A stretch of DNA of 64,000 nucleotides from Escherichia coli (GTDB lineage Bacteria; Pseudomonadota; Gammaproteobacteria; Enterobacterales; Enterobacteriaceae): assembly GCF_003334785.1 (NCBI RefSeq), contig NZ_QOWV01000017.1; one strand, written 5' to 3'. The translations under genes were made by a program, and so were the position numbers. This document shows positions 55,284-64,000 of the stretch, one piece after another (within the stretch, counting starts at the first letter, position 1; each line of letters starts with the position of its first letter). The notes beneath the pieces are model-generated. The model did no database searches, had not been told where the DNA came from, and worked only from the letters and a program-made list of their open reading frames with translations.

Positions 55284-55374
55284 GGATGCAGCCTCCAGAA
55301 TACTTACTGGAAACTATTGTAACCCGCCTGAAGTTAAAAAGAACAACGCCCGGCAGTGCCAGGCGTTGAAAAGA

Positions 55375-55833
55375 TTAGCGACCGGAGATTGGCGGGACGA
55401 ATACGACGCCCATATCCCACGGCTGTTCAATCCAGGTATCTTGCGGGATATCAACAACATAGTCATCAACCAGCGGACGACCAGCCGGTTTTGCGAAGAT
55501 GGTGACAAAGTGCGCTTTTGGATACATTTCACGAATCGCAACCGCAGTACCACCGGTATCCACCAGGTCATCAATAACGATGAAGCCTTCGCCATCGCCT
55601 TCTGCGCGTTTCAGCACTTTAAGCTCGCGCTGGTTGTCGTGATCGTAGCTGGAAATACAAACGGTATCGACATGACGAATACCCAGTTCACGCGCCAGTA
55701 ACGCACCCGGTACCAGACCGCCACGGCTTACGGCAATAATGCCTTTCCATTGTTCAGAAGGCATCAGTCGGCTTGCGAGTTTACGTGCATGGATCTGCAA
55801 CATGTCCCAGGTGACGATGTATTTTTCGCTCAT
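55375..55833 (-). CDS. gpt: xanthine-guanine phosphoribosyltransferase
   Basis: 152 aa; PRPP-binding motif [13 protein letters not shown]. Confidence 0.95.
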
Positions 55834-56093
55834 GTGAAGTGTCCCAGCCTGTTTATCTACGGCTTAAAAAGTGTTCGAGGGGAAAATAGGTTGCGCGAGA
55901 TTATAGAGATCTGGCGCACTAAAAACCAGTATTTCACATGAGTCCGCGTCTTTTTACGCACTGCCTCTCCCTGACGCGGGATAAAGTGGTATTCTCAAAC
56001 ATATCTCGCAAGCCTGTCTTGTGTTGACAACATTTTCTGCTAACCCTGTGACCTGCAATACTGTTTTGCGGGTGATCGACAAGGAGACTTAAC

Positions 56094-57551
56094 GTGTCTG
56101 AACTGTCTCAATTATCTCCACAGCCGCTGTGGGATATTTTTGCCAAAATCTGTTCTATTCCTCACCCGTCCTATCATGAAGAGCAACTCGCTGAATACAT
56201 TGTTGGTTGGGCAAAAGAGAAAGGTTTCCATGTCGAACGCGATCAGGTAGGTAATATCCTGATTCGTAAACCTGCTACCGCAGGTATGGAAAATCGTAAA
56301 CCGGTCGTCTTACAGGCCCACCTCGATATGGTGCCGCAGAAAAATAACGACACCGTGCATGACTTCACGAAAGATCCTATCCAGCCTTATATTGATGGCG
56401 AATGGGTTAAAGCGCGCGGCACCACGCTGGGTGCGGATAACGGCATTGGTATGGCCTCTGCGCTGGCGGTTCTGGCTGACGAAAACGTGGTTCACGGCCC
56501 GCTGGAAGTGCTGCTGACCATGACCGAAGAAGCCGGTATGGACGGTGCGTTCGGCTTACAGGGCAACTGGTTGCAGGCTGATATTCTGATTAACACCGAC
56601 TCCGAAGAAGAAGGTGAAATCTACATGGGTTGTGCGGGGGGTATCGACTTCACCTCCAACCTGCATTTAGATCGTGAAGCGGTTCCAGCTGGTTTTGAAA
56701 CCTTCAAGTTAACCTTAAAAGGTCTGAAAGGCGGTCACTCCGGCGGGGAAATCCACGTTGGGCTGGGTAATGCCAACAAACTGCTGGTGCGCTTCCTGGC
56801 GGGTCATGCGGAAGAACTGGATCTGCGCCTTATCGATTTCAACGGCGGCACACTGCGTAACGCCATCCCGCGTGAAGCCTTTGCGACCATTGCTGTCGCA
56901 GCTGATAAAGTCGACGTCCTGAAATCTCTGGTGAATACCTATCAGGAGATCCTGAAAAACGAACTGGCAGAAAAAGAGAAAAATCTGGCCTTGTTGCTGG
57001 ACTCTGTAGCGAACGATAAAGCTGCCCTGATTGCGAAATCTCGCGATACCTTTATTCGTCTGCTGAACGCCACCCCGAACGGTGTGATTCGTAACTCCGA
57101 TGTAGCCAAAGGTGTGGTTGAAACCTCCCTGAACGTCGGTGTGGTGACCATGACTGACAATAACGTAGAAATTCACTGCCTGATCCGTTCACTGATCGAC
57201 AGCGGTAAAGACTACGTGGTGAGCATGCTGGATTCGCTGGGTAAACTGGCTGGCGCGAAAACCGAAGCGAAAGGCGCATATCCTGGCTGGCAGCCGGACG
57301 CTAATTCTCCGGTGATGCATCTGGTACGTGAAACCTATCAGCGCCTGTTCAACAAGACGCCGAACATCCAGATTATCCACGCGGGCCTGGAATGTGGTCT
57401 GTTCAAAAAACCGTATCCGGAAATGGACATGGTTTCTATCGGGCCAACTATCACCGGTCCACACTCTCCGGATGAGCAAGTTCACATCGAAAGCGTAGGT
57501 CATTACTGGACACTGCTGACTGAACTGCTGAAAGAAATTCCGGCGAAGTAA
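56094..57551 (+). CDS. pepD: cytosolic dipeptidase (M20 family) PepD
   Basis: 485 aa from GTG start (MSELSQLSPQPLWDIF...). Confidence 0.95.
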   Translation: MSELSQLSPQPLWDIFAKICSIPHPSYHEEQLAEYIVGWAKEKGFHVERDQVGNILIRKPATAGMENRKPVVLQAHLDMVPQKNNDTVHDFTKDPIQPYIDGEWVKARGTTLGADNGIGMASALAVLADENVVHGPLEVLLTMTEEAGMDGAFGLQGNWLQADILINTDSEEEGEIYMGCAGGIDFTSNLHLDREAVPAGFETFKLTLKGLKGGHSGGEIHVGLGNANKLLVRFLAGHAEELDLRLIDFNGGTLRNAIPREAFATIAVAADKVDVLKSLVNTYQEILKNELAEKEKNLALLLDSVANDKAALIAKSRDTFIRLLNATPNGVIRNSDVAKGVVETSLNVGVVTMTDNNVEIHCLIRSLIDSGKDYVVSMLDSLGKLAGAKTEAKGAYPGWQPDANSPVMHLVRETYQRLFNKTPNIQIIHAGLECGLFKKPYPEMDMVSIGPTITGPHSPDEQVHIESVGHYWTLLTELLKEIPAK

Positions 57552-57563
57552 TTATTTGATTTG

Positions 57564-57595
57564 CTGCCGGATGGCGTTTAATCGCCTTCCGGCAG
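57564..57595. terminator. bidirectional hairpin terminator between convergent pepD and prfH
   Basis: ctgccggatggcg-tttaat-cgccttccggcag (13-bp stem, one mismatch) followed by tttca. Confidence 0.6.
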
Positions 57596-57607
57596 TTTCA
57601 TCCTTCA

Positions 57608-58165
57608 TTATCCTTCGATAAAAGCCATCCCTGTAAATGTCCGTCGCGGGTTGCCACGTTCAATCTGGTGATGGAACATTCGCCGCTGCGATTTCAGCGC
57701 CGCGCTATTTTCCTGTTGCTGTTGCTCCAGCTTCCAGGCAATCAGCAATCGTGCCAGCCGCTTGTTAGCATGCTGACTACGCTCTGACTGAACCTTCACG
57801 CTAATACCGGATGCCAAATGCGTGGCGCGTACCGCCGAGTCGGTTTTATTGACATGTTGACCGCCCGGCCCCGACGAACGCAGCGTCTCATAACGGATTG
57901 CATCCGATTGTTCCTGCTCATCAGCGGTAAAACGCCCAATGCCCAGAAACCAGTTTTTGCGCCCATGATGAGGCCGATACGGACTCGGACAAATCCACTG
58001 AATAGTGCCACACCAGCTTTCGCTTAATGCCCATGCGTTATCGCCATCGAGAGAAACCAGCGCCGAACGCAGTGTGTCAGAGTAGCGGCCCGTTTCTGTT
58101 TCCAGCACCGTTACCGCGACGTCTTGCCGGGTAAAAACGACCAACAGAGAAGAACGCTGCGCCAA
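57608..58165 (-). CDS. prfH: peptide chain release factor homologue PrfH, probably N-terminally truncated remnant
   Basis: 185-aa ORF containing GGQ motif ([11 protein letters not shown]); its 5' end overlaps an rtcB fragment in a different frame. Confidence 0.6.
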
Positions 58166-58343
58166 TCGGGTAGCCGCGTCCGGGGTGTAAATCTGGCATC
58201 CCCACTACGCGCTGCATGTTGGGTAAATTTGCCGTGGTGTGTAATTGTTGGATCGCTAAACTCTCGATCCACAGGTCATCAGATGCGATGGTAAATACCG
58301 CATCGGATAAGGGACGAATATATTTGCCCATGTACCATTCCAT
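58077..58343 (-). pseudogene. ykfJ: N-terminal fragment of an RtcB-family RNA ligase (ykfJ-like)
   Basis: 88-aa ORF with RtcB-like N-terminus ([19 protein letters not shown]) that then degenerates; overlaps the prfH 5' region. Confidence 0.55.
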
Positions 58344-58648
58344 TTATACTCGTCATACTTCAAGTTGCATGTACTGCGACTGCGTTCGTTCACCCCAGTC
58401 ACTTACTTATGTAAGCTCCTGGCGATTCACTCGCTTGTCGCCTTCCTGCAACTCGAATTATTTAGAGTATATAAATATAAAAATCAGGAAATGGCAGACG
58501 AATCCAGGGCAAGAAAAAAAGAATTAATCCTGGAAAGGTCTGCAAAGAGTCATTGATAAAGGATTTGTCATGATTTACCTCCTTGCAGTTTGTGGAATCA
58601 GAAAACGCGCACATACCAGGCGGGCGTTATTTTCATTGCAAGCTGGAT

Positions 58649-59101
58649 TTAATGTTGCGGTTTATATCGCATATAAAAATTAGTAAACCACGCTCCCCGG
58701 CATTCAACGCGCTGCTGCTTAACTGTCTGAAAACCATAACGTTCAAAAAAGGGTTTTGCGGTTATGCTTGCGTCCACCGTAAGTTCGGATTCAGACTTAA
58801 TCAAAGGTTTTAACAAAGCGCTGGCAACCCCACGGCGGGTGTATTCAGGGTCAACAAATAACATATCGATATAATGTTCAATGCGGGAAATAAAACCAAC
58901 CGGTTGTGCATTAATGATCGCAACCCACACTTGTGATTTCGCGAGTTTCTCCTTCCAGCGAGATTCGTCAATCTGCGCCCAGGCGGAAATTTGTTGTGGT
59001 GAATAATGCTGACTGGCGGTCATCGTAACCGCTCTAATGAAAATAGCGCATAGTTGCTGAAAATCGCCAGGCTGATAGTTTCTTATTTGTATGTTATTCA
59101 T
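58649..59101 (-). CDS. yafP: GNAT-family acetyltransferase
   Basis: 150 aa; last gene of the dinB operon. Confidence 0.85.
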   Translation of the reverse strand: MNNIQIRNYQPGDFQQLCAIFIRAVTMTASQHYSPQQISAWAQIDESRWKEKLAKSQVWVAIINAQPVGFISRIEHYIDMLFVDPEYTRRGVASALLKPLIKSESELTVDASITAKPFFERYGFQTVKQQRVECRGAWFTNFYMRYKPQH

Positions 59102-59110
59102 AATATAAAT

Positions 59111-59509
59111 TCAAAAACGCATGCGAAACGCTTCTGCCATTTTCCCAATTTTATGCATTTGGTTGTTATCTCGAGCCAGTTTATGAGGTTCAGGTTTCAG
59201 AATGGCAATGAGCAACCATGCTTGCTCATCAAACGCCCCCTGACAATATACCAAATGCGCTTCGTCATTCGTTCTGCTGAATTGGCGCAACTGTGGCGGA
59301 AATGGATTATTCTCATTTGCCAGATGAATATGAGCAACTCGCTCAAATTTGATTAATGGCCAGGTAAAGGAGTCGTCGTAGAGTGCATCGCGACCAAATA
59401 TATCTGGCAAAACACCGTCACGCTTATAGGAAATAAAATCCGCCGTTAACGCATCAAGTTCCTCTGCTGTAAGTTGCAGGCGAATAAGTTTTGTTTTGAA
59501 TACCCGCAT
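59111..59509 (-). CDS. yafO: ribosome-dependent mRNA interferase toxin YafO
   Basis: 132 aa; 2-bp gap after yafN. Confidence 0.85.
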   Translation of the reverse strand: MRVFKTKLIRLQLTAEELDALTADFISYKRDGVLPDIFGRDALYDDSFTWPLIKFERVAHIHLANENNPFPPQLRQFSRTNDEAHLVYCQGAFDEQAWLLIAILKPEPHKLARDNNQMHKIGKMAEAFRMRF

Positions 59510-59511
59510 CC

Positions 59512-59805
59512 TTATTCCTTAAAGTCATTGAAATCATCATCCGTCATATCATTAAGATATTGTTCAGCGCGGCGTGTAATTTCCTCTAATCTTGCAGCAC
59601 TTGGACGGAAGCGCGCCTTTATGGGCTTTTTCTCCTCTTGTTCAGCAAGCATGTCCATTAACGCTTCGAATGCGCTGGCACTTAAGAGATATCCTGCGGG
59701 GCGATTATTAGAAAGAACCGCAACCGGTTGATCAATAAAGTATTTAGCTGGGTTTTTACGTAACTCAGTGATATTGACCGATTTTTCAGCGAGAATTCGA
59801 TGCAT
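59512..59805 (-). CDS. yafN: antitoxin YafN (Phd/YefM-like)
   Basis: 97 aa, acidic C-terminus. Confidence 0.85.
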   Translation of the reverse strand: MHRILAEKSVNITELRKNPAKYFIDQPVAVLSNNRPAGYLLSASAFEALMDMLAEQEEKKPIKARFRPSAARLEEITRRAEQYLNDMTDDDFNDFKE

Positions 59806-59856
59806 ACAGTGATACCCTCATAATAATGCACACCAGAATATACATAATAGTATACA

Positions 59857-60912
59857 TCATAATCCCAGCACCAGTTGTCTTTCCATTTGCGGGTCAAGCA
59901 ACGTCACATGCAGCCCCACCAGACGCACACCGCGCCCGCCGCGGCGTTCATCCCAGGTTTTACGCGCGGTGGCGATTAGATCAGCTTTATTCAGCCGCGG
60001 CCAGACGTGCTCCTGGGTGGTTTGCTGAAAATCGTCGAACTTTAATTTCACCCCCTGGCGAGCAATCAGTAAATCAGGTTTTACCTTTGCCAGACGGCGT
60101 TCAAGTTCCGGATACAGCCGCTCGATAATCGCTTCACATTCAGACCAGTGATGAATATCTTCCGCCATCGTGCGTTCCACGCCGACGGATTTTCGCAACC
60201 GTTCGCTGTTAACATCGCGTTCGTCAATCCCCTGACTACGCTCCCACAAAATGCGGCCAAATTTGCCAAAGCGTTTAAGCAGCATCACCAGATCACACTT
60301 TTGTACATCACCGCAGGTCCGCAGCCCCATCGCTTCCAGTTTTGCCGCTGAGACTTTGCCGACGCCGGGGATTTTTGCCAGCGGTAAGGTTTGTAAAAAT
60401 GCCGGAACTTCTGCCGGCGTAATCACAAACTGGCCGTTGGGTTTATTCATGTCGGAGGCGATTTTGGCGAGAAACTTTACTGGTGCCACGCCCGCAGACG
60501 CCGTCAGTTGCAGCTCGTTGAAGATTGTCTGGCGGATTTCCTGGGCGATGAGGGTCGCAGAACCGTGGCAATGGACGCTATCGGTGACATCGAGATAAGC
60601 CTCATCCAGTGACAACGGTTCAATGCGCGAGGTGTAGCGCGAGAAGATTTCACGGATATGATTTGAGGCTTCTTTGTAGGCGTCAAAGCGCCCCGGAAGC
60701 AAGGTGAGATGTGGGCATAATTTGAGCGCCATCCCTGTCGGCATAGCGCTACGTACGCCAAATTTACGCGCGGGATAATTGGCGGTGCTGATCACCCCCC
60801 GACGTTCGCGGCTGCCGCCAATAGCAATAGGGATATCGCGCAGGGCGGGATTGTCGCGCATCTCCACTGCGGCGAAAAAGCAGTCCATATCCACATGAAT
60901 GATTTTACGCAT
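59857..60912 (-). CDS. dinB: DNA polymerase IV (Y-family, SOS-inducible)
   Basis: 351 aa from [20 protein letters not shown]. Confidence 0.95.
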
Positions 60913-60926
60913 TGCTCACCTCTCAA

Positions 60927-60946
60927 CACTGGTAAAGTATACAGTG
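60927..60946 (-). promoter_or_regulatory. LexA (SOS) box of the dinB promoter
   Basis: cactggtaaagtatacagtg on + strand = CACTGTATACTTTACCAGTG on the dinB strand (CTG-N10-CAG), 15 bp upstream of the dinB start. Confidence 0.75.
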
Positions 60947-60982
60947 ATTTCAGGGTTTGAGAAATGCGTAAAGATTCAGCAT

Positions 60983-61873
60983 TTAACGCGTTCGCTGCGA
61001 AAGCACCTGCTGCTTATCCAGCTTTTGCACCAGCGGCTGCACCACTTTATCCCCATGCTGACCAAAGTATTGATACAGCGTATCGGACGCACTTTTGGTC
61101 AGCACCATAATCTCAATGCGCCGGTTGCCCGCGCTTTGCGGATTTTTGGAATCCAGCAGCATCTGGTCCGCCATTGCGCTTACCTGCATCACTTTATCTT
61201 CCGGCATTCCGGCCTCTTCCAGCACCCGACGAGCCGAAAGCGCGCGGTCACCCGAAAGGTTCCAGTTGTTGTAGATATTGTTTTTGTAGGCCATCGCATC
61301 GGTATGCCCGGTAATAATAATTTTATTATCGAGCGAGTCGAACACTGGCGCGAGCTCCACCAGCAGCGTTTTAAAGAACGGCATAATCTTCGCGCTGCCG
61401 CGTTCAAACATATTGCGGTTCTGGTCGTCTTTAATCAGCACGCGTAATCCCTGGGGAACAATCTCCATCTCCAGATTCGCTTCCATATGCGCATCACGGG
61501 CAATGGTGTTGATACTGGTTGCCAGCTCACCAAGCTCGGTGGCGGATTTCTTCTTCAGCAGCGCCGTTTTCTCATTCACATCACGCGCTTTTTTCTCCGT
61601 CTCTTCCGGCACCGCCACGGTGGCAGGTTTTGGCGGATGAGACGGGCTGATTTTATTTAACGGCGACAGCCCACCACCGTTAAAAATCGACTGCCCGTGC
61701 AGCGCGGCGATAATGCTTTCACGCTCGGATTTACTGACGCTGTTGACAATCAACTTTATTGTCGTCACCAAAGGGGCCGAGCGTATTTCCGAGGTTTCTG
61801 CCCGCTTTACCTTAGACGCGATGCCCGGCAAACAGATGGCGATTGACGCCGATCTTAACGCCGGATTGATCAA
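60983..61873 (-). pseudogene. lafU: MotB-like stator protein of the Flag-2 lateral flagellar system, N-terminally truncated
   Basis: ORF has OmpA/MotB-like C-terminal peptidoglycan-binding region but no N-terminal TM helix; its 5' end overlaps the lfhA fragment. Confidence 0.6.
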
Positions 61874-63452
61874 CCAGGCGCAGGCGCAAACCCGGCGTAA
61901 AGATGTTGCCAGCGAGGCCGATTTCTACGGCGCGATGGACGGGGCATCGAAGTTTGTGCGCGGGGACGCCATCGCCGGGATGATGATTCTGGCGATCAAC
62001 CTGATCGGCGGCGTCTGTATCGGGATCTTCAAATACAACCTGAGCGCCGATGCTGCCTTCCAGCAGTATGTGCTGATGACCATCGGCGACGGCCTGGTGG
62101 CGCAGATCCCTTCCCTGCTGCTCTCCACCGCGGCGGCGATTATCGTCACCCGCGTCAGCGACAACGGCGATATCGCCCATGACGTGCGTAACCAGCTGCT
62201 GGCAAGCCCGTCGGTGCTCTACACCGCCACCGGGATTATGTTCGTGCTGGCGGTGGTACCGGGAATGCCGCACCTGCCGTTTTTGCTGTTCAGCGCCCTG
62301 CTTGGTTTTACCGGCTGGCGGATGAGCAAACAGCCGCTGGCGGCGGAGGCGGAAGAGAAAAGCCTCGAAACGCTGACCCGCACCATCACCGAAACCAGCG
62401 AGCAGCAGGTCAGTTGGGAAACCATTCCGCTGATCGAGCCTATCAGTTTAAGCCTCGGTTACAAACTGGTGGCGCTGGTGGACAAAGCACAGGGTAACCC
62501 GCTCACCCAGCGGATTCGCGGCGTGCGGCAGGTGATTTCTGACGGCAACGGCGTGCTGCTGCCGGAGATCCGCATTCGGGAAAACTTCCGCCTTAAGCCC
62601 AGTCAGTACGCCATTTTCATCAACGGCATAAAGGCTGATGAAGCGGATATTCCGGCGGATAAACTGATGGCCCTGCCCTCCAGCGAAACCTACGGCGAGA
62701 TTGACGGCGTGCAGGGGAACGACCCGGCGTACGGGATGCCGGTCACCTGGATCCAGGCGGCGCAGAAAGCGAAGGCGCTGAATATGGGGTATCAGGTGAT
62801 CGACAGCGCCAGCGTGATCGCTACCCATGTAAATAAGATTGTGCGCAGCTATATTCCTGATTTGTTTAACTATGATGATATTACGCAGTTGCATAACCGT
62901 TTATCGTCGACGGCACCGCGTCTGGCGGAAGATTTGAGCGCGGCGCTCAATTACAGCCAGTTGCTGAAAGTGTACCGGGCGCTGCTGACCGAAGGCGTTT
63001 CCCTGCGCGATATCGTCACCATCGCCACCGTGCTGGTCGCCAGTAGCACGGTGACGAAAGATCATATTCTGCTGGCGGCCGATGTGCGCCTGGCATTGCG
63101 GCGCAGCATTACCCATCCGTTCGTTCGCAAGCAGGAGCTGACGGTGTATACGCTGAATAATGAGCTGGAAAATCTGCTGACCAACGTGGTGAATCAGGCG
63201 CAACAGGGCGGGAAAGTGATGCTCGACAGCGTGCCGGTCGATCCGAATATGCTCAACCAGTTCCAGAGTACGATGCCACAGGTGAAAGAGCAGATGAAAG
63301 CGGCGGGGAAAGACCCGGTGCTGCTGGTGCCACCGCAGCTGCGCCCTTTGCTGGCGCGTTATGCAAGGTTGTTTGCGCCGGGGCTGCATGTGCTGTCGTA
63401 TAACGAAGTGCCGGATGAGCTGGAGTTGAAGATTATGGGGGCGTTGATGTAA
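61713..63452 (+). pseudogene. lfhA: FlhA-like flagellar export gate protein of Flag-2, lacking about the first 115 residues
   Basis: ORF aligns with FlhA from GAERI(S/A)EV(S/G)ARF...MPGKQMAIDADLNAG onward; no FHIPEP N-terminal TM region. Confidence 0.65.
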
Positions 63453-63475
63453 GTATCCAGCATTGGTGCACAACT

Positions 63476-63667
63476 GCCGGATGCGGCGTGAACGCCTTAT
63501 CCGTCCTACCGTTCAGGCACAAGTTTGTAGGCATGATAAGACGCGCCAGCGTCGCATCAGGCATCTGCGCATAACTGCCGGATGCGGCATAAACGCCTTA
63601 TCCGGCCTACCGATCCGGCACAAGTTTGTAGGCATGATAAGACGCGCTAGCGTCGCATCAGGCATCT
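63476..63667. repeat. REP array, four units in two inverted pairs
   Basis: tgccggatgcggc(g/a)t(g/a)aacgccttatccg(t/g)cctac at 63476-63510 and 63577-63611; gtaggcatgataagacgcgc(c/t)agcgtcgcatcaggcatc at 63528-63566 and 63629-63667. Confidence 0.85.
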
Positions 63668-63675
63668 GCGCACAA

Positions 63676-64000
63676 TTATGAAATGATACGCTCCCCGGCA
63701 CTAAAATCCGTTACGTCCCCCGCCCAATCGATGGGATATAACCCTCGCGCGACATCGCGATGGAACGTTGAGAATGGCCAATCACTCACTTGCTTTACCC
63801 AACCATGCTTTACTGGATTTATATAAATATAATCAACATGATGCCTATAATCTTTGGTATTGCGGATGGCGTGCTCCCAAAAACGTGGTTGCCAGATATT
63901 TTTCAATCCACAAGCATGGGTAAATTGCTTTTTAATTTCCCGCCAGCGCGAGGAAAAATCATCATCGCCTTCAGGTAATGTCCAGATACAGTGCATATGC
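63676..64000 (-). CDS. rayT: REP-associated tyrosine transposase (RayT/TnpA-REP), 3' part only; 5' end lies beyond the window
   Basis: C-terminal 106+ residues incl. ...HCIWTLPEGDDDFSSRWREIKKQF...; flanked by REP array; HUH motif region truncated by window edge. Confidence 0.75.
   Translation of the reverse strand, partial: HMHCIWTLPEGDDDFSSRWREIKKQFTHACGLKNIWQPRFWEHAIRNTKDYRHHVDYIYINPVKHGWVKQVSDWPFSTFHRDVARGLYPIDWAGDVTDFSAGERIIS

Follow-up and report, generated by a model that had tools for sequence, protein, structure and literature searches.

Within the window, the 64,000-nucleotide stretch of DNA that was analysed, positions 59111-60946 and their surroundings are identical to dinB-yafN-yafO-yafP (b0231-b0234) of Escherichia coli K-12 MG1655, and the locus is best explained in full as a LexA-controlled dinB operon that co-expresses the YafNO toxin-antitoxin pair and a GNAT enzyme (probability roughly 0.94). 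This is the textbook K-12 operon, already published, and nothing is new in the operon itself. Genome comparison showed that positions 55310-64000 are MG1655 sequence with a single mismatch, located in pepD. Its description goes back to McKenzie et al. 2003, which PMC2814082 and PMC3105422 both cite; the latter paper describes the four-gene operon, the induction of YafP, and a two-gene variant.

Anatomy of the operon and its induction by DNA damage

The four genes of the operon are:

59857-60912, minus strand: dinB, DNA polymerase IV (Y-family translesion polymerase), 351 aa, identical to MG1655 b0231
59512-59805, minus strand: yafN, Phd/YefM-type antitoxin, 97 aa
59111-59509, minus strand: yafO, ribosome-dependent mRNA interferase toxin, 132 aa, starting 2 bp past the yafN stop
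58649-59101, minus strand: yafP, GNAT N-acetyltransferase, 150 aa

An initial annotation had described four co-directional open reading frames in the order dinB-yafN-yafO-yafP, separated by 51, 2, and 9 bp, and had called the arrangement already described. The gaps are exactly these, all four genes lie on the minus strand, and the operon is identical to the published K-12 locus. The interval given for it, 59111-60946, encloses dinB, yafN, and yafO and leaves out yafP, which its own text includes.

Protein assignments were made against curated family-model cut-offs, and all four operon products scored above theirs. The dinB product matched the NCBIfam equivalog NF002677 over its full length (residues 1-345, 546.9 bits vs. 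a cut-off of 256). The products of yafN (NF007300, 196.7 vs. 99 bits), yafO (NF007377, 246.6 vs. 153 bits), and yafP (NF007338, 324.3 vs. 146 bits) were assigned in the same way. Pfam matches were obtained to PhdYeFM_antitox for YafN (PF02604, E = 7.8e-7), YafO_toxin for YafO (PF13957, E = 1.2e-39), and Acetyltransf_10 for YafP (E = 4.4e-20, with Acetyltransf_7 and _1 also matched). With the generic model TIGR01552 the yafN product fell just below the cut-off (19.4 vs. 20.8). A relative of YafP in the PDB, 2fiw (E = 1.3e-17), points to a GNAT fold, and no solved structures of YafO or YafN were found by sequence search.

The yafN antitoxin gene immediately precedes the yafO toxin gene in the same orientation, with almost no gap, which is the layout of a type II toxin-antitoxin system. 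The 2-bp spacing suggests that translation of the two genes is coupled. As a type II pair, YafO would cut mRNA on the ribosome and YafN would neutralise YafO. The toxin activity is taken from the literature: YafO arrests growth by ribosome-dependent mRNA cleavage and is neutralised by YafN (PMC2814082; Zhang et al. 2009, as cited in PMC3105422), and only translated mRNA is cleaved (PMC2814082). In published work, metabolism of nitroaromatic genotoxins provides a functional link between YafP and Pol IV. Reading of the 9-bp yafO-yafP gap revealed no Shine-Dalgarno sequence for yafP, and a weak terminator-like hairpin is present at the 3' end of yafO (59112-59136).

For LexA control and co-transcription we likewise draw on published work, the latter resting on the papers that cite McKenzie 2003 and on a dinB-promoter deletion experiment. 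LexA ChIP data are available too. Mitomycin C induces yafNO, and this induction is lost upon deletion of the dinB promoter, i.e. it proceeds only through that promoter (PMC2814082). A YafP-YFP fusion is mitomycin-inducible (PMC3105422), and all four genes rise in parallel after ciprofloxacin, with log2 changes at 120 min of 3.13 for dinB, 2.00 for yafN, 2.15 for yafO, and 2.00 for yafP (PMC11002266). These data bear out the core of the earlier proposal that the toxin and the acetyltransferase are tied to induction of the polymerase. Absence of DNA-damage induction of yafNOP had been named as the outcome that would refute it; the experiment had thus already been run, and induction was seen with both drugs. 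The lower induction of yafNOP than of dinB is compatible with partial termination or with a contribution from a constitutive internal promoter.

The yafNO cassette and its promoter

The following features bound the cassette or lie in front of yafN:

59857-59863, minus strand: direct repeat ATTATGA, left copy (7 bp), covering the dinB stop codon
59098-59104, minus strand: direct repeat ATTATGA, right copy (7 bp), covering the yafP start codon
59806-59885, minus strand: dinB 3' end and 51-bp spacer, candidate yafN-proximal promoter/operator (consensus scan and repeats)
59880-59885, minus strand: -35-like TGGAAA of the candidate yafN promoter (consensus scan; probable hexamer)
59856-59861, minus strand: -10-like TATGAT of the candidate yafN promoter (consensus scan; probable hexamer)
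59850-59855, minus strand: GTATAC palindrome, candidate yafN operator region
59843-59863 and 59819-59839, minus strand: two 21-nt direct repeats, candidate yafN operator region

Of 5426 complete E. coli genomes, 2847 (52%) carry yafNO, a 752-bp cassette between dinB and yafP. Strains without yafNO have a single copy of ATTATGA, and dinB and yafP overlap there at ATGA (see also PMC3105422). This presence/absence cassette bounded by ATTATGA is a by-product of the analysis. About half of E. coli thus lack yafNO, which means that toxin and polymerase are not invariably linked in this species. What is conserved is dinB(-yafP); the toxin owes its SOS control to the position of the cassette.

The SOS link of yafNO may be incidental, yafNO being a self-sufficient addiction cassette that is read through from the dinB promoter and has no selected role in DNA damage. 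We regard this as a serious candidate, at somewhat less than even odds. The cassette is missing from 48% of the complete genomes, where dinB stays fused to yafP (PMC3105422), a 7-bp direct repeat flanks it on both sides, and it brings an autoregulated promoter responsive to translation stress. Across genera the dinB-pepD interval is variable (empty, or holding yafP, yafNOP, or rtcB-prfH), one Escherichia species has kept yafN and deleted yafO, and Klebsiella plasmids and temperate phages carry distant toxins of the YafO family (32-36% identity). However, co-transcription and SOS induction are real, and E. coli has further SOS-controlled toxins in dinJ-yafQ, symE, tisB, and hokE (PMC2814082). 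The same cassette is found at the same place, with a conserved spacer, in Pseudocitrobacter vendiensis, and E. fergusonii also has the four-gene form (PMC3105422); these two occurrences suggest that the arrangement is old and has been kept, though repeatedly lost.

A second promoter, autoregulated by YafN and unresponsive to DNA damage, has been mapped experimentally upstream of yafN (PMC2814082). This promoter lies in the dinB-yafN spacer, is repressed by YafN, and answers translation stress through Lon. The spacer is conserved in Pseudocitrobacter, and a scan of it found no terminator-like site. The possibility, raised in PMC2814082, that the yafN promoter has a further LexA box was rejected, as the best weight-matrix score there was -0.4, in agreement with that paper's own result.

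The promoter-like site in the 51-bp spacer, together with the weaker induction of yafNOP, could be taken to mean that yafNOP are expressed only from internal promoters, with the LexA box governing dinB alone and the genes merely adjacent. We consider this very unlikely: it is already contradicted by the promoter-deletion experiment (PMC2814082), in which mitomycin induction of yafNO was abolished, and the lack of a terminator-like site in the spacer, the poor LexA-like score upstream of yafN, and the 4-nt overlap of dinB and yafP in two-gene strains all speak against it as well.

The dinB promoter and its LexA box

Control of the whole operon by LexA, the preferred reading, places the following features upstream of dinB:

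60927-60946, no strand assigned: LexA (SOS) box CACTGTATACTTTACCAGTG (CTG-N10-CAG, 20-mer), 14 nt upstream of the dinB ATG
60958-60963, minus strand: -35-like TTCTCA of the dinB promoter (consensus scan)
60936-60941, minus strand: -10-like TATACT of the dinB promoter (consensus scan), within the LexA box as read from the sequence

The predicted dinB promoter (TTCTCA, 16-nt spacer, TATACT) has 9 of 12 consensus matches in the scan, and CACTGTATACTTTACCAGTG has been given as the dinB box among the LexA motifs upstream of UV-induced genes (PMC3009722). The initial annotation had placed a well-formed LexA box 15 bp upstream of dinB. A box is indeed there, at 14 nt from the ATG, and to call it well-formed was too generous. 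It carries 7 mismatches to the ideal palindrome and one of its half-sites reads CTGG. Scored with a leave-one-out weight matrix derived from published boxes, it reaches 13.7 and ranks 17th of the 18 known boxes, so that on sequence alone the dinB box is one of the weakest known.

Window statistics did not single out the box. A search for the ideal LexA palindrome with up to 3 mismatches gave no match, and was uninformative because the dinB box carries 7. CTGT-N8-ACAG with 1 mismatch was found 18 times against 16.9 expected, and without enrichment simple consensus counting cannot validate the box. A score as high as that of the dinB box is expected in 27% of random 64-kb sequences. A higher-scoring LexA-like match inside gpt (55647-55666) looks non-functional. 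Comparison across orthologous promoters was informative: in all 80 Enterobacteriaceae loci a LexA-type box (scores 13.6-23.7) precedes the dinB ATG by 12-31 nt amid diverging flanking bases, and the K-12 box is the lowest-scoring of the 80. Position and conservation thus place the box beyond chance as judged by comparison, where window statistics do not. A chance 20-mer match with no regulatory role, which the rank of 17/18, the 27% random expectation, and the gpt match would allow, can be dismissed for practical purposes, being already contradicted by this conservation (80/80), by the overlap with the -10 element, and by published induction of dinB by UV, mitomycin C, and ciprofloxacin.

As long as the DNA is undamaged, dimers of LexA would occupy the box at 60927-60946. 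Since the box overlaps the dinB -10 element, bound LexA would hinder RNA polymerase, probably by occluding the -10. Repression would be leaky, and the basal level of Pol IV sizeable, because the box is weak; approximately 250 molecules of Pol IV are present per unstressed cell (PMC3105422). That K-12 has the weakest version of a box conserved across 80 species is consistent with this known high basal level. Upon DNA damage, RecA-stimulated self-cleavage of LexA would free the dinB promoter, and a single transcript would then cover dinB, yafN, yafO, and yafP.

The neighbouring rtcB-prfH remnant and comparison with known systems

Downstream of yafP, outside the operon, the following features were identified:

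58487-58641, minus strand: rtcB-prfH control region, orthologous to P. aeruginosa PA5471.1
58636-58641 and 58613-58618, minus strand: promoter-like TTGCAA, 17-nt spacer, TGGTAT
58578-58588, minus strand: leader segment 1 with Shine-Dalgarno sequence, CTGCAAGGAGG
58524-58571, minus strand: 15-codon leader ORF, MTNPLSMTLCRPFQD followed by a stop
58538-58547, minus strand: leader segment 2
58487-58499, minus strand: leader segment 3
58348-58476, minus strand: ERIC/IRU repeat element between leader segments 3 and 4 in K-12, not at this place in ATCC 25922
58326-58341, minus strand: leader segment 4 (GGAATGG) and conserved rtcB start ATGGGC of the ykfJ pseudogene (ATG at 58329-58331)

The remnant retains a promoter-like element of its own, along with a leader-peptide attenuator that is the orthologue of PA5471.1 of P. 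aeruginosa (armZ/prfH). In K-12 a -10 change and the ERIC insertion have degraded the leader, and the genes under its control are pseudogenes. Within the inserted element lie the ERIC primer sequences. Neither the K-12 leader nor that of six further loci was covered by any Rfam family, and the sole match nearby was a sub-threshold V_AS5 match to the ERIC/IRU element (58349-58472).

A short ORF with a Shine-Dalgarno sequence precedes the rtcB-like gene, which is followed by prfH, in 11/11 rtcB-bearing loci, vs. 0/71 dinB loci without rtcB. The leader ORF was also present in all 21 true metagenome matches, which were found with a search pattern that excluded the ORF start, and in P. aeruginosa itself and a betaproteobacterium. 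In Entomomonas and Pseudomonas the annotated upstream ATG of rtcB falls outside the reading frame. The leader RNA contains four segments with mutually exclusive 1:2, 2:3, and 3:4 pairings. Pairing in helix 2:3 reaches 98.6%, and one of its pairs covaries (AU 13, GC 9, GU 2). Helix 1:2 shows no covariation because both of its strands are nearly invariant. Per-sequence duplex calculations gave -8 to -12 kcal/mol for 3:4 in 31/31 sequences. In a model of the free RNA, helices 1:2 and 3:4 are predicted with median probabilities of 0.96 and 0.89, and with a ribosome on the ORF start the predicted probability of 2:3 is 0.90 and that of 3:4 is 0.25.

The 3:4 hairpin was rejected as an intrinsic terminator in enterobacteria, where segment 4 is followed by N3-AUGGGC and there is no U-tract. 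Because segment 4 abuts the rtcB start in this way, masking of the ribosome binding site (RBS) is a more likely output than termination in enterobacteria. Modelled ribosome stalling with a short footprint had almost no predicted effect on the rtcB RBS; with the Shine-Dalgarno region covered, the helices switched as expected in the model, and mean predicted RBS accessibility rose only from 0.27 to 0.32. Mimicry of the 16S rRNA 3' end by the leader was considered and discarded, CCUGC being the only common string in a by-eye comparison.

In roughly half of E. coli strains (50% of the 5426 genomes) and in other Enterobacteriaceae, rtcB2-prfH is intact and immediately follows dinB(-yafP) in the same orientation, and no convincing terminator separates the two. 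In the window, a scan likewise found no intrinsic terminator between yafP and the rtcB leader, a region that is strongly structured (z = -4.4) owing to the ERIC element and the leader hairpins. A LexA box upstream of rtcB was sought in 9 rtcB loci of the genome scan, ATCC 25922, and the K-12 window and was rejected, with best scores of -2.7 to 10.2 at no conserved place.

In such strains, SOS-induced transcription running on from the dinB promoter could feed additional leader RNA into the stalling attenuator, giving a two-signal ribosome repair that links SOS to colicin E3-type defence; we regard this as improbable. If true, DNA damage would increase the amount of transcript, and attenuation would be released by ribosomes that are stalled or damaged. 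SOS, which is also the trigger of colicin release in neighbouring cells, would then be linked to defence against colicin E3-type cleavage of 16S rRNA. The initial annotation had also offered the operon as an expression handle for the rtcB-prfH remnant; this is unsupported, since the remnant has a promoter-like element and an attenuator of its own and lacks a LexA box. In the literature searched we found no mention of SOS induction of rtcB-prfH, and the PrfH/RtcB2 literature searched did not mention regulation of the E. coli rtcB2-prfH operon. The PA5471.1 orthologue on E. coli rtcB2-prfH provides a testable hypothesis for how ribosome damage might induce its own repair in E. coli.

Compared with known systems, the operon is the same as b0231-b0234 of MG1655 in its genes, gaps, and LexA box, with no difference, read on the opposite strand. 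The two-gene dinB-yafP operon of phylogroup B2 (CFT073, ATCC 25922, Nissle 1917) shares the LexA-controlled promoter, dinB, yafP, and the place between lafU and pepD. It differs in lacking the 752-bp yafNO cassette and in the dinB/yafP overlap at ATGA. In ATCC 25922 and Nissle 1917 the downstream rtcB-prfH is intact with no ERIC insertion, unlike in K-12.

The E. coli and PA5471.1 leaders are alike in their strong Shine-Dalgarno sequence, a 13-15-codon ORF containing LCR, and the same four RNA segments (GCAAAGGAG, CUUUGCAGR, GYCUGCC, and GGAUUGG-N3-AUGGGCAA). They also precede the same gene pair, which in P. aeruginosa is armZ (RtcB-like) and PA5470 (prfH). They differ in peptide length (15 residues in E. 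coli vs. 13 in P. aeruginosa) and in the loop between segments 2 and 3 (approximately 40 vs. 190 nt). Induction of the attenuator through ribosome stalling has been shown for P. aeruginosa only, and the K-12 copy, unlike PA5471.1, is degraded and controls pseudogenes.

The toxin loci dinJ-yafQ, symE, tisB/istR, and hokE have a LexA box at their own promoter, whereas yafNO comes under SOS control only via read-through from an upstream polymerase gene. In common with yafNO, each encodes a translation- or membrane-acting toxin under LexA control (PMC2814082).

The dinB-yafNOP operon and its LexA box

Window 55310-64000, the final 8.7 kb, corresponds to positions 247810-256500 of E. coli K-12 MG1655 in reverse orientation, where the RefSeq annotation gives the gene order lfhA', lafU', dinB, yafN, yafO, yafP, ykfJ', prfH', pepD, gpt. 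The sole mismatch to MG1655 in these 8.7 kb lies at window position 56963, inside pepD (the window has A; NC_000913.3, reverse-complemented, has G at position 254847). All four operon products scored far above the cut-offs of curated NCBIfam equivalog models:

60927-60946, LexA box 20-mer CACTGTATACTTTACCAGTG, 14 nt before the dinB ATG
59857-60912, minus strand, dinB, DNA polymerase IV (546.9 bits, cut-off 256)
59512-59805, minus strand, yafN, antitoxin YafN (196.7 bits, cut-off 99)
59111-59509, minus strand, yafO, toxin YafO (246.6 bits, cut-off 153)
58649-59101, minus strand, yafP, YafP-type GNAT (324.3 bits, cut-off 146)

The intergenic gaps of 51, 2 and 9 bp given in the initial annotation match the sequence exactly. 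Its coordinates reach the end of yafO and leave out yafP, though this gene is part of the operon. Its core reading of the operon, already flagged there as published, was correct; the locus is known and the observation is confirmed. Pfam searches assigned YafO to YafO_toxin (E = 1.2e-39), YafN to PhdYeFM_antitox (E = 7.8e-7) and YafP to Acetyltransf_10 (E = 4.4e-20). Sequence searches returned no solved structure for YafO or YafN, and a distant PDB relative, 2fiw, for YafP. NCBI names YafN a "type I toxin-antitoxin system antitoxin" (NF007300, RefSeq), whereas YafNO, a pair of proteins, is of type II; the label is apparently a misnomer that has spread to thousands of genomes. The Flag-2 remnants lafU' and lfhA' lie upstream of dinB (region of window 60983-63452 and 63460-63996), followed by a REP cluster, whose equivalent repeats in ATCC 25922 match Rfam naRNA4, and by the start of rayT, a REP-associated transposase gene, at the window edge.

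The LexA site was described initially as well-formed and 15 bp upstream of dinB. The site is genuine; the distance is 14 nt and "well-formed" is an overstatement. A symmetric LexA weight matrix was built from 17 other boxes (PMC3009722 Table 4), and in a leave-one-out ranking the dinB box, with a score of 13.7, came 17th of 18. Consensus searches of the window yielded no match to the ideal palindrome at up to three mismatches, and 18 matches to CTGT-N8-ACAG with one mismatch (16.9 expected). The dinB box was the second-best matrix match in the window, and scores at least as high occur in 27% of random 64-kb sequences (0.32 hits per window). By arithmetic from this matrix rate, a chance match no more than about 40 positions from any one start codon has a probability of roughly 2 in 10,000. 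The box contains the -10 hexamer of a sigma-70-like dinB promoter (TTCTCA, 16-nt spacer, TATACT). A LexA-type box lies 12-31 nt upstream of the dinB ATG in 80/80 loci from different Enterobacteriaceae species; its left half is CTGTATACTT in most of them, and the surrounding bases vary freely. Promoter position and conservation, not consensus counts, thus settle that the box is genuine. The K-12-type box has the lowest score of the 80, which fits leaky repression and, as PMC3105422 reports, a high basal level of Pol IV. The top matrix score in the window (15.0, AGCTGGAAATACAAACGGTA, 55647-55666) belongs to a site inside gpt that has no CAG triplet; it is apparently a chance match and illustrates the limits of matrix scanning.

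Induction of yafNOP by DNA damage, on which the initial annotation had made its reading depend, is found in published data for both mitomycin C and ciprofloxacin. The yafNO mRNA rises with mitomycin C and the rise is lost on deletion of the dinB promoter; yafN has a second promoter, directly upstream, that YafN itself regulates, a LexA-like sequence there does not account for the induction, and YafO cleaves only translated mRNA (PMC2814082). The four genes form one operon in which YafP-YFP is inducible by mitomycin, and YafP is functionally linked to Pol IV in nitroaromatic genotoxin handling (PMC3105422). After 120 min of ciprofloxacin the genes were induced in parallel, with log2 changes of 3.13 (dinB), 2.00 (yafN), 2.15 (yafO) and 2.00 (yafP) (PMC11002266). 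Our LexA matrix found nothing at the yafN promoter (best score -0.4). The 51-bp dinB-yafN spacer, conserved in Pseudocitrobacter vendiensis, contains a promoter-like site, a GTATAC palindrome and two 21-nt direct repeats (window 59819-59863; 76% identical, 24 nt apart); the palindrome and repeats are candidate YafN operator sites.

A variable slot between dinB and pepD

Strain comparison showed that a 752-bp segment holding yafN and yafO (window 59105-59856) is missing from ATCC 25922, in which dinB and yafP overlap at ATGA. In K-12 this cassette is flanked by a 7-bp direct repeat, ATTATGA, at the dinB stop (59857-59863) and the yafP start (59098-59104), an extension of the ATGA (4 nt) that PMC3105422 describes. 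This study proposed repeated yafNO deletion through recombination between the repeats, and reported 60% four-gene and 40% two-gene forms among 98 genomes. Of 5426 complete E. coli genomes, 2847 (52%) carry the cassette, in nearly all cases as one copy on the chromosome. At the 3' extremity of yafO (window 59112-59136, minus strand) is a weak terminator-like hairpin with a trailing T-run; it is kept in P. vendiensis and may mark the 3' end of the cassette itself. The 9-bp yafO-yafP gap holds no Shine-Dalgarno sequence for yafP.

Among the 80 species-level loci, yafN-yafO-yafP occurred in three (E. coli, E. whittamii and P. vendiensis), yafN and yafP without yafO in one (Escherichia sp. E1V33), yafP alone in 14 and rtcB-prfH alone in four, and pepD directly followed dinB in about 50; given these mixed contents, the dinB-pepD interval is a variable slot. 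Across the fetched loci L003-L090 the interval from dinB to the convergent pepD is empty or holds yafP, yafNOP, rtcB-prfH or combinations. In E1V33 (L003, 6380-6450) yafN is an intact orphan; yafO breaks off after its first 8 codons, by a deletion at another 7-nt microhomology, and is joined to the yafP start. Klebsiella, Salmonella Infantis, Cronobacter, Kosakonia, Citrobacter and Enterobacter carry rtcB-prfH behind dinB(-yafP), in the same orientation. Distantly related YafO-family toxins (32-36% identity) were found on some 120 Klebsiella plasmids and in temperate phages, including HK639, PhiR40_1 and several Pseudomonas phages. Near-identical yafO plasmid matches in E. coli include a 214-kb K-12 plasmid record (NZ_CP014273.1) with a yafO identical to that of the window.

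The rtcB-prfH remnant and SOS control

About 1 kb of ATCC 25922 is missing from K-12, comprising most of rtcB and the start of prfH. At least 80% of the rtcB-prfH stretch was present in 2710 of 5426 complete E. coli genomes (half); as totals only, intact rtcB-prfH stands at 50% beside yafNO at 52%. K-12 has yafNO and a deleted rtcB-prfH and ATCC 25922 the reverse, and both combinations seem to exist. The initial annotation had offered the dinB operon as an expression handle for the remnant, which is on the yafP strand, 305 bp further downstream. A scan found no terminator between the two, and read-through is therefore possible. No LexA-like site was found upstream of rtcB in nine genome-scan rtcB loci, ATCC 25922 or the K-12 window, and the literature searched made no mention of SOS induction of ykfJ or prfH. 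The proposed handle is therefore speculation and is not supported. Natively, the remnant is probably controlled by a sensor of ribosome stalling and not by the SOS box.

The rtcB leader and the armZ attenuator

A conserved control region lies immediately upstream of rtcB in every examined locus that holds this gene, whatever the preceding gene, in the dinB slot or elsewhere. Its parts are:

sigma-70-like promoter (TTGCAA, 17-nt spacer, TAGTAT or TAATAT) with a GC-rich discriminator
strong Shine-Dalgarno sequence
13-15-codon ORF containing LCR
four conserved RNA segments
K-12 copy: window 58487-58641, minus strand, with segment 4 at 58326-58341 and leader ORF MTNPLSMTLCRPFQD

A pattern from this region matched 11/11 loci with rtcB and 0/71 dinB loci without it. 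A metagenome scan, with a pattern that omitted the ORF start and segment 1, gave 23 matches, 21 of them upstream of an RtcB-like ORF; a Shine-Dalgarno-preceded ORF was present in 21/21. The leader was found across Gamma- and Betaproteobacteria irrespective of neighbouring genes (fetched loci L002, L004, L005, L015, L023, L027, L036, L056, L062, L083-L091, L114, L115). No Rfam family covers it, and the E. coli PrfH/RtcB2 literature searched does not mention the leader, uORF or native promoter. The K-12 copy is degraded: its -10 hexamer is TGGTAT (58613-58618) versus TAGTAT in intact strains, and a 129-bp ERIC/IRU element (58348-58476; sub-threshold Rfam V_AS5 match) separates segments 3 and 4.

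Pairing in helix 2:3 (GCAGRC with GYCUGC) reached 98.6%, one pair covaries (AU 13, GC 9, GU 2), and covariation was seen in an inner helix too. In 31/31 sequences segments 3 and 4 are able to pair over 8-10 bp; this duplex takes three bases from helix 2:3 and ends 3 nt before the rtcB start. Segment 2 is complementary to segment 1, in which the uORF Shine-Dalgarno sequence lies; no covariation could be counted for helix 1:2 because both segments are nearly invariant. Partition-function models gave the following pairing probabilities:

free RNA: helix 1:2 0.96, helix 2:3 0.04, helix 3:4 0.89
ribosome on the uORF start: helix 1:2 0, helix 2:3 0.90, helix 3:4 0.25

Modelled accessibility of the RBS changed little, from 0.27 to 0.32.

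In P. aeruginosa the 13-residue leader peptide PA5471.1 governs armZ (PA5471, RtcB-like) and PA5470 (prfH) through a four-segment attenuator, which is released by early ribosome stalling on the leader (PMC12057347, PMC13041342). The fetched P. aeruginosa locus contains the leader ORF MIQFSTLCRLRLA, with Gln3 and Phe4 as in these studies, and a betaproteobacterium also carries the leader. An armZ-type leader attenuator on the E. coli ribosome-repair operon is mildly new; its kind is already known, and it lies outside the operon finding. In the enterobacterial leader, the start codon and not a U-tract comes after segment 4; RBS masking therefore seems a more likely output than termination, although the modelled RBS accessibility shifts little. 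The PA5471.1 leader has the same four segments as the enterobacterial rtcB leader, which is orthologous to the PA5471.1/armZ attenuator.
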